A model generated the notes under the pieces. The model searched no databases. It saw only the letters and a list, made by a program, of their open reading frames with translations, and was not told the DNA's origin. This document shows positions 12,301-18,300 of a DNA stretch of 64,000 nt, one piece after another. Location of the stretch: the NCBI GenBank assembly GCA_020137815.1, contig CM035356.1, positions 310,001-374,000 of the forward strand, given 5' to 3'. Each line of letters opens with the position of its first letter. Position 1 is the first letter of the stretch. This stretch comes from Hormiphora californensis. Its lineage: Eukaryota > Animalia > Ctenophora. Made by a program: the position numbers and the translations under genes.

Positions 12301-15300
12301 ATTAAAGTTATTACATTGCCATTTTAAAACCACAGATTTTAGTTACGTTAGATAACTAAATACTTGAGAAATTGAAAGTTGCTTGTTAGACGATAAATTG
12401 TATGTGTTCACGATGTAATTCTTAGAATTGGCAGTAAAGAGCCCATGGACAATAGTGCACGGAAATGTGAGAGAGCTGAGAAGAGCTGAAGAGAATTACA
12501 GAAACGAGTTATATATCGACTCGATATTAAGAAAAGAGAGAGTATAGTTCAGGCAAAGTGGTAAAGAGGAGTGGCACGATTATCAAAAACAGAGAAGTTA
12601 TTTGTCACTTCTTGAATGATTCTTATTTCTTAAACTGGTTGCGGTTGTTTGACATACTCCCATTTTGTTTCCTCGCATGCATTAGAGTTTTATTTTAAAT
12701 CCTGTGATCACATTTATTGGATGAGTGTTTGAATTTAAGGCTCCCACTATTCGTACACTATATTCACACACATAACAAGGACGACAAATTCGACACACAT
12801 GAGGCGACGTGCACAGGAGAAATGCACTACAAACAAACTATTGGACACCCAGAATTTGTGATAAAAGGACCAACTTAGTGAAAAACTTTGAAACAGACAA
12901 ACTTTGAAACAGACAAACTTTGAAACAGACAAACTTTGAAACAGACAAACTGTGAAACAGACTGTATGACACCACCCATACGCGCCAATACCACGTTTTC
13001 CTCTTTAGGGGAACGAGCAGGTCCAAAAGCAGTTCAAAATTTCCCCCTATCTTTCCCTCCCTCTCTCCTCTTCCCCTCCCCCCCTTCCCTCTCTCTCTCC
13101 TCCCTCTCCTCTCTCTCCTCTCTCCTTTCCCCTCCTTTCATTTTTCCCATCCCCCCCTTTTTTTCTTTTTTCTATTTATTCTTATCTTTCTATCTTTTTC
13201 TCGCCCAAATTTCCCCCCTTTCTTTTCCCTCTCCCCCCCCCCTTCATTTCCTCTTTTAATCTCCCTCCTAGTTTCCCTCCGCCCTCTTCTTTTCTCCCCT
13301 TTTTTTTAATGTTTCATTTCTTTCATTTTTACACCCCTTCTTTTTTATCACCCTTTAGGGGAAAGAAAAAAGGAGAGGGGAGAAGGGAGGGGAGAGAGAG
13401 AGGGCATAGGGGTAGAGAGAGGGAGAGAGATGAGAGAGGAGAGAGAGAAGAGAGAGAGAGAGAGAGAGAGAGAGCGGAGAGAGAGGAGGGAGGGATCCTC
13501 TCTTTCTCGTTCTCGGGTTCTCTCTTCTCTGTCTCTCTCTCCTCTCTCCTCTCCGCTCTCGCTCCTCTCTCCTCATCTTCATCTATTATCATCTATCTAT
13601 CTATCTATCTATCTCTCTCTATCTATCTAATCCTATATCTGTCTCCCTATCACTCTACCTTGTGTAACTGGTGTAAATCACTGTTCAACAATAATGCTCT
13701 TGTCCCAAATCGAGCGCACACACACACTCTCTCTCTCTCTCTCTCTCTCTCTCTCTCTCTCTCTCTCTCTCTCTCTCTATCTTTCTCCCTCTCTATCTTT
13801 CTCCCGTACTGTCTTTGCTTGCAACTCGTGTTCCCTCTCCGGGTCTATTTTGGGAGTTACTCAGCGGGGATTTCACGCTGTTTTTTATTGTAAAACTACT
13901 ATCAAACTACTATCGTTGCTGGTGCTCTATTGGCTTATTGGCTTATTGGCCCGGGCCCCGGATGAATGTATGAAAATCAGAGAGAAAATGTTTCAAGTTT
14001 TAAATGTAAAATTTTAGATAGAGATGCAATCAGAAAAAAGATGTTTATATTAGATAGAGATGTACATTATTATTTTGGTGATGAAATCCCCTATTATGTT
14101 CGCAGGCTTCGTTTAGCCGCGCTGCGCACGGCTAGTGTAGGGGTGACTGCGTCACCAAATTATTATTGTAATTAGGGATTGAGAAAAAAGGGGACTGTGA
14201 ACTGTGGATGAGTTAGGCTCGAGACACTCGAGAAGGAAGATTATTTGATTGGGAGAAAAAAAGGAGCTCTTGTACTCAGACTTAATTGTAGCGGGGTGGG
14301 GTGGGGGAGATAGAGAAAGAGAGAAATGAAGGTATTTAAGCTAAACGTATACAACTAAAGTCGCGTTTTTTGAAGTTGTCACCCCCTTCTCGTGCGCTCG
14401 TTTTTTTGCGTGTCACATCACATGTTAACGTGTGGTGTGCACCTCAAAATTGATAAATTTCACATGCGAATGCATTGGGGGGGGGGGTGATAACTTCAAA
14501 AAATTCGACTTTAGAAGGTGGGGTTAATAGTACCGCCGTGGGAAGTGCTCCTCCTACTGCAGATTTGATAGCCGCGTCCGAAGGGCAGTATAAACCATCA
14601 CCATACTCATTTGACCAAATAAGTGCACTGATTTGCGAAAAAATAAGATTTTGTTCAGTGAATATATAGAATGCAGCCGTATGTAACTGGCTGAGTGACT
14701 GTTTTACCTCTCTGATGGCTGTAGTACTTACCATCTGTTCTGTTGATGATATTATGTGTGCTAGAATATTGCGTGGTGGTAAACATAATGCATTGCGTTT
14801 AGTGGTTGACTGCTTACACCCACCTTGAGTTGTCTGACCATCCTTTTACTCAGTCTCTATTATATTATATAGTCTCGCAATTCTCTCCCCTTTTCTCCCT
14901 TCCATATTCTCTCCCTACTCCCTCCGTTATCATTTTACCTTAAAACTACTTTTTGCTGCACAGGATCTGGTAATGGACCCCCGTGTCTAGAGTGGTGTGT
15001 GGGATCGATGGAATATGCAGATCAAAGCACAGAGGAATCACTCTCAGAGGGCTTTTCTCCGCCCCTCTCTCCCAACTCTACAGAACGGCTTCAAAAAGCG
15101 GTCTTTCTACGACTTCGTATGAAAGATGGTGTGAAGAACTGGAAACAGAAATCGAAGGATCACCATCTAAAAGCGGAGATAGTTCAGCCTGTGCTACTAT
15201 CACCAAGAAGTCGTAGGAGAGGGTCTGTTAGGCCCCCACCAATCCCACAACTACAACCACCCCCACAGAAATCCCTCGGAGATGCTGTTAGGCTAAGGTG

Positions 15301-18300
15301 GAAGGTTCAAAGCGGCCTAACGAAATGGAAAACCCAAACCAAGGCACACCAACATCAAGACGAGGAGGAGAAAGTTTCTCATCCGCCTGAGTATGACGTT
15401 AACATAGGGAATAAATCCTATACCATGATTCTCAGAAAACAAGACACAGAACAAGCAGAGATAGAGGACCAGAGGTTAAAGCCGGAAACTGCCCAGCCTG
15501 TTCTTTTATCACCTAGAAGTCGCAGAAGAGGATCTATGAAACCTCAATCTTTACCTCAACCACCACCACCATCTCCAAAACCCATAAAACATTCTTCCGA
15601 TTCGAAAACTCTCGGAGATGCTGTTAGACTGAGATGGAAGGTTCAGAGCGGCCTAACAAAATGGAAAACACAAACCAAGGCACACCAACATCACGATGAC
15701 GACGAAGAGGAGCTCTCATACCAGTCACCACGAAAAGATCCCAAAATCATAACTCCTGAATACGATGTCAACATTGGCAACAAGTCCTATACGATGATAC
15801 TCAGAAAGCAGGACACAGAAGAGGATGAGAGGCTGAGTGTTCCTTCATCTAACCACTGGGACACGGGCGAGGATGAGTGGGAGTTCGTTGGAAACGGTTC
15901 AGATCCATCCAGTGCCATCTTCTTTGGCGATCAATTTGCTGATGAACATGTGTTCTTTCACGATGATGTGTTTTGTGAAGGAGCAGAAGCAGATCAAGAA
16001 GATGAGGAAGATGAAGAGGGTGAAGAGGATGAGGAGGGTGCCTGGAGGAGATGTGAGATAGCGTTGGTGATATTGGTTATTAGTGCTCTGGTGAAACTCG
16101 CCCACACTATTTATGAGAACTATATAATCTACTCCTCTGGTAATCATATAATTATTTTGAATGGGGGTGGTAAATGTTTTTGTAGCCCAGAATTATCGAG
16201 TCATAAATTGTTGTGTTTGTTGTGTTTGTTTGTCTGACGTCTGTTATCGCCGAATTTCAATTATGAATGTATGACATTGCATGGAAGGATAGCACGAATA
16301 TATGGGTCCACTTGATCGAGTGCTTGTCAGATTATGAGATTTATTACTAGTTCGAGATGTATGTGTATGAATGTCTGTGCCTTTTAGTCAATAAAATCTT
16401 CGGCCACAGGTTTTAGGTTTTATTGCCAACAATATACTCTCAGTCAATCCATTTTAGTAGTCCACCCACTCCTTTTAGTATGTCTCTCAGTCCCGCCCTC
16501 TCCATATATATGAGAAGTGGAGGGACTAAGTTTCTAGAAATGGGAGAAAGAACATATTATGGGACTGATACTATTAGATAAATTGGGGGCGGGGGTAGGG
16601 GAGTTGCAAAATAATGTTTTAGCGGGTTTTAGATTCTCTGTGCATTATATTATTAGGGGTGTGGCTATTATAGTTTATCTAACACTAATCCCTACAAACT
16701 AACACCCTACAACTCTATTTCCAGTACACAATTGGACTGCTGAAGATGTTGCTATGTGGCTGAAAGACGTTGTCGGGCTACCCCAATATCTACCCGTCTT
16801 CAAGAAAAACAACATTGACGGCAATTTTCCTGCCCAGGTAATAGTCTTTTGAGTTAATTAGGAATTGTGGGATCTTGAGTTGGATTCAGCGCCATATTTT
16901 CTCGGTTCATTCTTGAGTTATCAGATAACTTATCAGCTAACTGGACATTTCCAAGTAACAGCGTGATATCAGCTCTGCAGTTTCAGTTGATGTTGTTGTT
17001 TTCAGCAGATCATAAGAACGATTAGTACAGTAAGGGAGAGAGCAACAGGGGGGGGGGGGAGAAAGATAAAAAATAGAGGTAGACTCTCTAGACTCTCTTC
17101 TTCGTTTGATGAAAAGAAAAACTGTAGCTTGAGAGAGAGAGAGGGAGAGAGAGAGAGAGAGAGAGAGAGAGAGAGAGAGAGAGAGAGAGAGAGAGAGAGA
17201 GAGAGAGAGAGAGAGAGAGAGAGAGAGAGAAGAGAGAGAGAGAGAGAGAGATGTAATGAGTTAATTGCTTTCCCTGTCACGGGTTCCTGCTTTATATGTA
17301 CTGCTCTACTTGGCTAGTAGAGTTGAAGAGAGATAACGGCGATAAAAAGATAAATAAAGATAGATGGTGTTTAGCGACAAAGAAAGAAGCTTAGTTGGAG
17401 ACTGGAGAGATATTTCAAATGAAGGCTGTATGAACCTTCCCAATATTTATTGGATAAATGGACATTATGGTACTGCACTGTACAGCGACGTGGGGAGAGG
17501 AGTAGACTGGTGCCTCTTCTTTATTACGTAATCGATGCAGATGCCCATTGCCCCCTCTCTCTCTCCACAATAATAACTATCTGCAGATATTAAATGTGAT
17601 GGTAGCTTCTGTTAATATGGATAGTCCCCAACTTTCTCTCTCTCTCTCTCTCTCTTTCTCTCTCTCTCTCTCTCTCTCTCTCTCTCTCTCTCTCTCTCTC
17701 TCCATGGTTCAATCGATTTTCAACTCATTAATGTCCTAACCATGTTTCACTCCGTCCCATGTATTTCCACATTCCGTTCATCCGGAAAATTTCCTTTCAT
17801 CAAGAAACGCCGAATATATGAATCTTGATTTGATTGTGTAGGTGAGGTTGAGAAAAAAGAGATAGAAAGAGAGTGAGGCCAGGGTGAGAGGGAGACAGAG
17901 AGAAGAGAGAGAAAGAGGGAGAGAGAGAGAGAGAGAGAGGAGAGAAAGAGAGAGAAAGATGGCATTGCATACGATTGAGGAGAAAGCCAAGTGTGAAACA
18001 AGCAAATGTTGAGACATGTTTTGTATGTCTCTCTCTATCTCTCTATCTCTCTATCCCCCGTCTCTTTCACTAACAGTTGTTGTTCAAAGTACAATAGAGA
18101 TTGGAGCGGGGTGCTGAAACTACAAAAAGACAATGCAAACATTTTGCAAATACACACACGAGCTCTCTCTCTTTCTGAAGCCGATACTGTGTGTTACAAA
18201 GTTACCGTCTGCACTATACAATATATGGGAATTGTATTTACTATGTACATACTATGCAATGTATAAAGCTGGAGTGTTGATGCAGAAGCTCAATATTCTA

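Follow-up and report, generated by a model that had tools for sequence, protein, structure and literature searches.

A coding exon in intron 3 of a ctenophore STIM gene that may give rise to a two-helix STIM without EF-hands

The STIM splice isoforms STIM1L, STIM1A/beta, STIM2.1 and STIM2.3 alter the cytosolic C-terminal part of the protein, and the luminal sensor and the single membrane pass are kept, as the isoforms are summarized in PMC7795233. In the mouse, minor Stim1 variants with alternative 5' untranslated regions (UTRs) start at M75, so that the signal peptide is missing and the EF-hand is incomplete (10.1101/2020.03.25.005199). The authors suggest that strong coupling to Orai1 may result from the disabled EF-hand, and the account of these variants includes no functional study (10.1101/2020.03.25.005199). 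Nested genes are common in ctenophores according to the genome description, with 2357 nested genes in 1654 hosts, many of them on the host strand (PMC8527503). For sma-9 of C. elegans it has been described that internal alternative trans-splicing gives a C-terminal isoform (PMC2904332). A literature search, with most subscription papers outside its scope, returned no report on STIM of ctenophores or on a STIM with two membrane passes. Here, 64,000 nucleotides (nt) of the ctenophore Hormiphora californensis (contig CM035356.1 of GCA_020137815.1, positions 310,001 to 374,000) were analyzed, called the window below. The window harbors a STIM gene, and intron 3 of this gene contains an additional exon on the same strand, which encodes a protein under purifying selection. 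The best explanation overall, to which we give an even chance, is that this intronic exon is a selected alternative first exon giving a two-helix, EF-hand-less STIM.

The STIM gene and the exon in its third intron

The host gene has 12 exons on the plus strand and runs from ATG 9389 to TAA 24909. The order of the encoded elements, i.e., signal peptide, EF-hand pair, SAM, one membrane helix and SOAR, is that of the STIM family. The assignment was based on Pfam, on hydropathy and on an exon-by-exon comparison with three full-length STIM transcripts, L001-L003, which were found among 127 pattern matches in metagenome contigs. These transcripts are 57-65% identical to the STIM of the window and correspond to it exon by exon. 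Pfam matches to SAM (PF07647/PF00536) were obtained in exon 4, and matches to SOAR (PF16533) in exons 10 and 11. The exons of the gene are as follows:

9357-9449, plus strand: STIM exon 1, with ATG 9389 and the signal peptide; the pyrimidine-rich AG at 9357-9358 is a likely leader trans-splice acceptor
10030-10181, plus strand: STIM exon 2, canonical EF-hand (Pfam PF25578, EF-hand_STIM1, E 3.9e-10), in agreement with L001-L003
10394-10517, plus strand: STIM exon 3, second half of the EF-hand pair (Pfam PF25578, E 5e-4), phase-1 donor at its end
16725-16837, plus strand: STIM exon 4, first half of SAM (Pfam SAM), phase-1 acceptor, one surplus base near 16826-16829
19296-21425, plus strand: STIM exons 5-9, remaining SAM, the STIM membrane helix (exon 6, 19985-20088) and coiled coil
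22062-24909, plus strand: STIM exons 10-12, SOAR/CAD and C-terminal tail; AATAAA at 25115

Compared with transcript L002, the surplus base of exon 4 is an insertion of 1 nt that shifts the frame ahead of exon 5. It is likely an assembly error, because the later exons are all intact and another gene of the window also often switches frame. Two introns of the gene contain tandem arrays. In intron 10 (22224-24050) a unit of about 31 nt copies the end of exon 10 and its donor, and dozens of donor look-alikes follow directly behind the real donor. The array in intron 9 (21440-21770) has a unit of 21 nt and is open in several frames.

Intron 3 spans 10518-16724 and has phase 1. It contains, on the same strand as STIM, a stop-to-stop frame at 14873-16237 (plus strand). 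The original prediction had placed an exon of 392 codons here, between the EF-hand and SAM exons, and its coordinates were confirmed: Pfam EF-hand_STIM1 lies in exons 2-3 and SAM in exon 4, the signals are found at AG 14962-14963, ATG 15008, TCTG/GTAATC 16139/16140, TGA 16235-16237 and AATAAA 16390, the length of 14964-16139 is 1176 nt, and acceptor, donor and STIM intron 3 share phase 1. Features that go beyond this prediction are the internal duplication, two rival sites of the same phase (an acceptor before 15084 and a donor at 16053) and the surplus base of exon 4. A search of 1.84 billion 50%-cluster representatives with the encoded protein resulted in three matches, one of which, P0002, is a true relative. 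The other two, P0003 and P0004 (37-38 residues aligned), are fish immunoglobulin-repeat proteins and were judged to be spurious. The features of the intronic exon are:

14939-14963, plus strand: acceptor, phase 1, score 8.85, with a pyrimidine tract before the AG
14964-15007, plus strand: stretch from the acceptor to the ATG, 44 nt, likely 5' UTR; the coding frame is also open here
15008-16139, plus strand: coding part, 377 codons plus one base
15089-15166, plus strand: degenerate first copy of a basic helix motif ending in Trp, 10/26 identical to the repeat 1 copy; 0/5000 shuffles reach its score
15179-15454, plus strand: internal repeat 1, with RRGS kinase-type site, proline run, basic helix motif and predicted beta-hairpin
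15488-15823, plus strand: internal repeat 2, with the same blocks as repeat 1
15824-16042, plus strand: acidic juxtamembrane region, net charge -27, with a motif (acidic W-x-x-V, 15869-15889) like an LC3-interacting region (LIR)
16058-16114, plus strand: predicted membrane helix, likely a signal anchor, residues 351-369, kept in P0002
16140-16145, plus strand: phase-1 donor GTAATC, where the P0002 conservation stops
16140-16395, plus strand: read-through tail with TGA 16237 and AATAAA 16390, either the start of an intron or the 3' end of a stand-alone transcript

Several results show that the exon is coding. At the local non-coding stop rate, the probability of 392 codons without a stop is about 1e-9. 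The comparison of repeats 1 and 2 over 92 aligned codons revealed 42 synonymous and 21 non-synonymous changes, and the ratio of the respective rates, dN/dS, is 0.07 (p 8e-18). In addition, 24 of the 25 base differences in three repeat blocks with 63 identical residues are at third positions.

The RRGS sites are at residues 70 and 173, and we take them to be protein-kinase-A-type sites. The three basic helices have net charges of +4 to +6 and a 1-14 spacing of hydrophobic residues, which we take to be calmodulin-binding-like; this spacing is unspecific, because it occurs 15 times in the exon. The acidic W-x-x-V motif, presumably LIR-like, is also present in P0002, and its core pattern occurs four times in the exon. 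The fold model was poor (mean predicted local distance difference test score of 37) and contained only a helix at residues 342-371 and one hairpin per repeat. Pfam gave no match above the curated cut-off, only DUF7039 below it, and no EF-hand. ESM Atlas, PDB sequences and Rfam yielded no match for the exon, and none of four exact look-ups of the frame was successful. The protein was found neither among 7986 candidates of 224-716 residues nor among 7982 candidates of 30-67 residues, the lengths of 68-223 and above 716 residues being covered only by the search of the cluster representatives. The exon was also found in none of 409 candidates from metagenome contigs and in none of 81 from viral contigs. 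A derivation of the frame from a transposon or virus was considered and rejected: there is no Pfam domain above the cut-off, the frame is single-copy in the window, and it is not found in the viral contigs.

Donor, junction with exon 4, transcript start and topology

The protein P0002 has 125 residues, is encoded on an ENA contig of 602 nt, and is 80% identical to the intronic exon over residues 263-382. The identity is very unevenly distributed: 35 of the 38 residues before donor 16140 are identical, and only 1 of the 6 positions after it, including the P0002 stop (Fisher p 3e-4). A phase-1 GTAA occurs in only 2 of the 147 codons of the region compared. P0002 continues with G-K-Y, and real phase-1 STIM donors give G-K-N, G-K-G and G-K-E when translated through. 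The 114 nt before the donor need three base changes to give P0002; behind it, five of six residues differ, one of them being a stop. For the six codons behind the donor (18 nt), five base changes suffice to give the P0002 residues, compared to a mean of 10.3 for intron stretches, of which 0.7% (n=12102) need as few; part of this likeness is the donor consensus itself. The DNA behind the donor is thus similar and the residues nevertheless differ, and, therefore, it seems to be homologous DNA that drifted without protein constraint, as the start of an intron would. A drift of at least 28% suggests that P0002 is from a different species. From these alignments we strongly infer that donor 16140 is used. 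The phase match at this donor, for which the original prediction had conceded a 1-in-3 chance of coincidence, has gained comparative support, because the conservation ends exactly there. The designation of the exon as conserved holds for one relative and for residues 263-378. Past a rival same-phase donor at 16053, 26 of 29 residues are kept in P0002, and because the conservation runs past this site, the helix belongs to the exon.

The splice sites were scored with a matrix built from the 11 STIM introns, and each real site was scored by leaving it out. The acceptor at 14962-14963 has a score of 8.85, within the range of the real STIM acceptors (3.5-14.5, n=11), and ranks 17 among the 424 AGs of the intron. 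A rival acceptor of the same phase before 15084 has a higher score of 13.1. A start at ATG 15119 behind this acceptor was considered, but the degenerate repeat copy spans ATG 15119, and, therefore, coding likely begins earlier. The acceptor before 15084 itself is a possible alternative.

The acceptor of exon 4 (11.0) is the best beyond 16180, and among the 12 best listed it is the only one that opens into SAM. No good acceptor is present before AATAAA 16390. The join of 16139 to 16725 restores the canonical Val at the junction. Four cryptic acceptors at 16444-16491 have scores of 7.9-10.9, near the 11.0 of exon 4, and each would add 4-18 residues followed by a stop. A nested gene of two exons, in which the real donor joins one of these acceptors, would thus have suitable signals, but the added peptides are trivial, the stretch resembles a small repeat by eye, and there is no AATAAA between 16396 and 17352. 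We regard such a gene as very improbable.

The start of the transcript was approached via the three STIM transcripts. All three begin with a spliced leader that ends with TGAG and is joined 22, 32 and 52 nt upstream of the start of translation. The leader remnants are located at L001:1-28, L002:1-21 and L003:1-24 and are followed by two to three upstream ATGs before the coding ATG. The TGAG end is that of the ctenophore leaders as described in PMC8527503, which states that 56% of the Hormiphora Iso-Seq reads carry a leader. At exon 1 of the window gene the distance between acceptor and ATG is 30 nt, and at the intronic exon it is 44 nt, with an out-of-frame upstream open reading frame of five codons at 14973-14990. 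The two exons are built alike: an acceptor, a short leader region, an ATG, a hydrophobic targeting segment and a phase-1 donor. The leader distances in 3/3 transcripts, together with the 44 nt at the intronic exon, suggest a trans-spliced alternative first exon. Upstream of it the following feature was noted:

13801-14600, plus strand: possible internal promoter, with three inverted CCAAT boxes at 13929-13949 and a CpG observed/expected ratio of 0.9-1.1 (weak evidence)

The CCAAT cluster is one of two such clusters in the 64 kb, and the CpG level is similar around STIM exon 1. Within this zone, 62 nt (14401-14462) are 79% alike to 54988-55048.

The fused model, starting at ATG 15008, comprises 834 residues, is free of stops (with an X at the exon 4 indel), and contains two membrane helices and no EF-hand. 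The SAM-helix-CC1-SOAR module is in frame with the intronic exon in this model. The predicted isoform departs from canonical STIM in that exons 1-3 are skipped, EF-hand and signal peptide are absent, and the protein is not single-pass. Kyte-Doolittle values are 2.17 for the exon helix, 2.31 for the STIM helix and 1.96 for the STIM signal peptide. The original prediction had called the fusion topologically coherent and EF-hand-less; the stop-free model and the two hydropathy peaks of 2.17 and 2.31 bear this out for the predicted topology. As a rule, a long N-terminal region synthesized ahead of a membrane anchor remains cytosolic, and the predicted orientation relies on this rule.

The same borders could also belong to a cassette exon, spliced from exon 3 to 14964 and from 16139 to exon 4, which would result in a STIM of 961 residues with 392 residues between EF-hand and SAM. 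Both borders have phase 1, the stretch 14964-15007 is open, this model is also stop-free apart from the X at the indel, and the acidic flank before the helix would suit a tract on the lumen side. However, the helix as a stop-transfer segment would put SAM into the cytosol and SOAR into the lumen, and a cytosolic location would suit the kinase-type sites and the proline runs. The use of donor 16053 would yield a helix-free luminal spacer and normal topology; against this, the helix is coding, as seen from the 26/29 residues past 16053 that are kept in P0002. The promoter-like signs upstream of the exon also speak, weakly, against a cassette, which we consider quite unlikely. The topology favors a first exon, because the exon helix would replace the targeting signal that is lost with exons 1-3, whereas a cassette would invert SAM and SOAR.

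A separate observation concerns the end of the exon. Its last residues (16106-16139) are weakly similar to the helix that closes exon 3; with a shift of one residue, this match ranks 2-4 among about 370 positions. This comparison was post hoc and was not counted as evidence; the last residues might mimic the helix that packs on SAM.

Counter-evidence and other features of the window

A number of results weigh against a fusion of the intronic exon to STIM. The transcripts L001-L003, which are from other species, are all canonical, have the junction of exons 3 and 4 in each case, and 0/3 contain the intronic exon. The fused protein was found in none of the 50%-cluster representatives. An RNA run (X1) gave six short low-complexity matches on 14700-16950 and none on STIM exons 11-12, and thus says nothing on expression. 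P0002 is known at the protein level only, from a contig of 602 nt that gives no synteny with STIM, and, if it is RNA-derived, it would show read-through. Donor 16140 is weak, with a score of 2.86 compared to 2.76-8.0 for real donors, and ranks 22 of 97 GTs; the rival donor 16053 scores higher (6.52), and its use would remove the helix. Because rival sites of the same phase score higher, the splice signals alone prove little. The location of ATG 15008 near the 5' end is weak evidence of a start, since the 377 codons contain five Met. The core of the exon helix is short, consisting of 12 residues followed by K and H. The basic residues that had been noted before the helix are present as an RR pair (net +1 over five residues), but over 15 residues the net charge is -6. 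This flank would favor the opposite orientation by the charge-difference rule of membrane orientation. Two further points, the context of AATAAA 16390 and the frequency of same-strand nested genes in ctenophores, also belong here and bear on another explanation.

According to this explanation, the exon is only a stand-alone nested gene or a product of intronic polyadenylation, which is read through to TGA 16237, cleaved near 16410, and results in a tail-anchored protein of 409 residues outside STIM signaling. It has its own ATG 15008, stop 16237 and AATAAA 16390 within the intron. The AATAAA follows the stop at a distance of 153 nt and is preceded by two TGTA. At 45%, the T content downstream of it is the highest of seven sites compared; the chance of a hexamer like this one is 0.06-0.16, depending on the span. 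The weakness of donor 16140 and the fact that P0002 was also called as a protein ending shortly after the helix point in the same direction, and same-strand nested genes are described as common in ctenophores (PMC8527503). On the other hand, in neither species does the constraint reach past the donor, and in the window frame the stop follows 32 codons later. The region 16140-16237 has 45% T and 7% C, and the 32 read-through codons score below 85/85 coding blocks; this test is weak and confounded, since low scores are also obtained for the hydrophobic helix. The stops differ as well, being 32 codons past the donor in the window frame and 6 codons past it in P0002. In tail-anchored proteins a single helix lies within about 30 residues of the C-terminus; 40 residues follow the helix in the read-through frame and 14 in P0002. 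A stand-alone product alone is, in our view, unlikely.

Both products may be made. A shorter polyadenylated product with its end near 16410 may be made in competition with the weak donor, and such competition between donor and intronic polyadenylation would be the simplest reconciliation. Taken together, a fusion of an alternative first exon to STIM, with its steps of coding, donor, exon 4 join, leader start and topology, is slightly favored.

The window contains several additional genes and elements. Directly upstream of STIM, at 5710-8250 (plus strand), a small multi-exon gene has, by eye, a signal-peptide-like start. At 26936-27898 (plus strand), a frame of 320 codons resembles by eye the C-terminal part of a protein of a non-long-terminal-repeat retrotransposon, with no Pfam match at E 0.1. 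A multi-exon gene at 31300-34400 (minus strand) encodes a multi-helix membrane protein, which may resemble CWH43/PGAP2-interacting protein. A very long, apparently intron-free gene spans 37453-46910, has at least 10 frames and matches to SRCR and LDL-receptor class A, ends by eye like a seven-helix receptor, and has several frame switches. A basic frame of 389 codons without Pfam match is found at 48556-49725 (minus strand), and an exon with a KH domain (Pfam KH_1, E 7e-9) at 63285-63851 (minus strand), the gene of which likely extends towards 58500. Two related palindromic elements at 23600-23960 and 30320-30650 look by eye like miniature inverted-repeat transposable elements.

Proposed mechanism and comparison with known STIM forms

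The RNA of the predicted isoform would begin by leader trans-splicing to 14964, the precursor being either the STIM pre-mRNA or a transcript of an internal promoter. Translation would start at 15008. Donor 16140 would join exon 4 in frame. The helix at residues 351-369 would serve as a signal anchor in place of the skipped signal peptide and would leave about 345 residues in the cytosol. SAM would enter the lumen ten residues after the anchor, and the helix of STIM itself would return CC1-SOAR to the cytosol.

The general scheme of STIM activation has been outlined before (PMC4509486). Several studies on mammalian STIM1 are relevant for a lumen that contains only SAM. STIM1 D76A is described as constitutively active and as depending on the SAM multimerisation sites (PMC11127010), and EF-hand disease mutants are likewise constitutive (PMC11506743). 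SAM is reported to self-associate, EF-hands are reported not to (PMC7042325). Calcium-bound EF-SAM has been presented as a steric brake and SAM-SAM dimerisation as an accelerator (PMC12718381). From these findings on clamp and SAM it would follow that a SAM-only lumen should lean towards "on" whatever the store content. A SAM without the EF-hand clamp would thus self-associate and activate, and the predicted isoform would work like an unclamped STIM.

The basic tip of CAD is described to rest at the membrane of the endoplasmic reticulum (ER) (PMC12718381). In the isoform, the acidic tract beside the membrane might hold the basic, lysine-rich SOAR tip as a substitute brake, which the twin RRGS sites and the three basic helices might release; this step is speculative. 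The result would be a two-pass STIM that opens Orai on cyclic AMP or cytosolic calcium, and the poly(A) site would free the control region as a membrane protein, a proposal that is doubtful at present. The whole chain, through to cytosol-tuned and store-independent gating of Orai, is likewise judged less likely than not.

The two-helix isoform could also be made without activating Orai. It would then share the five steps up to the topology with the explanation preferred here and act on canonical STIM as a decoy or brake, or serve as a tether of the ER membrane or as an ER-phagy receptor. The LIR-like acidic W-x-x-V, a predicted motif for ATG8 binding, is kept in P0002, and the helix, which precedes SAM by ten residues, could keep the SAM domains away from each other, in line with the description that luminal bulk stabilises the resting state of STIM (PMC12718381). 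Inhibitory splice variants, i.e., Stim1A and STIM2.1, are also described. However, SOAR is intact, and removal of the EF clamp favors activation of STIM1. A non-activating isoform seems unlikely.

If the alternative first exon giving a two-helix STIM is real, a natural STIM with SAM and SOAR but without EF-hands would uncouple Orai gating from store content, and would do so in an animal lineage that was among the earliest to branch off. It would offer a ready-made test of SAM alone driving activation in a membrane, and it would be a case of leader trans-splicing that changes the topology and the input of a protein.

Compared with canonical STIM1 and STIM2 and with the transcripts L001-L003, the predicted isoform keeps SAM, the helix, CC1 and SOAR. 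It would lack the signal peptide and both EF-hands and would gain a second helix and, on the cytosolic side, about 345 residues. STIM1L, STIM1A/beta, STIM2.1 and STIM2.3 are splice isoforms that retune store-operated entry, as they are summarized; the predicted isoform would instead change the luminal sensor. The M75 variants of mouse Stim1 have alternative 5' ends like the predicted isoform, but no new N-terminal exon is part of their description. A cytosolic STIM2 preprotein, going by the title of a 2011 report by Graham, is said to activate ORAI1 independently of stores. The preprotein arises by inefficiency of the signal peptide, whereas the predicted isoform would arise by a new anchor exon. 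The engineered STIM1 D76A and EF-SAM deletions resemble the predicted isoform in the loss of the luminal clamp and in SAM-driven activity, as they are presented in PMC11127010 and PMC12718381. They are laboratory forms, and a SAM alone behind a second helix was not seen among those described there. Finally, the ctenophore nested genes (PMC8527503) and sma-9 (PMC2904332), as far as they are outlined in these sources, are similar in having same-strand coding sequence in introns or internal trans-splicing. In contrast to both, the exon in intron 3 of the ctenophore STIM gene has a conserved, phase-matched exit donor and would supply a new N-terminus.

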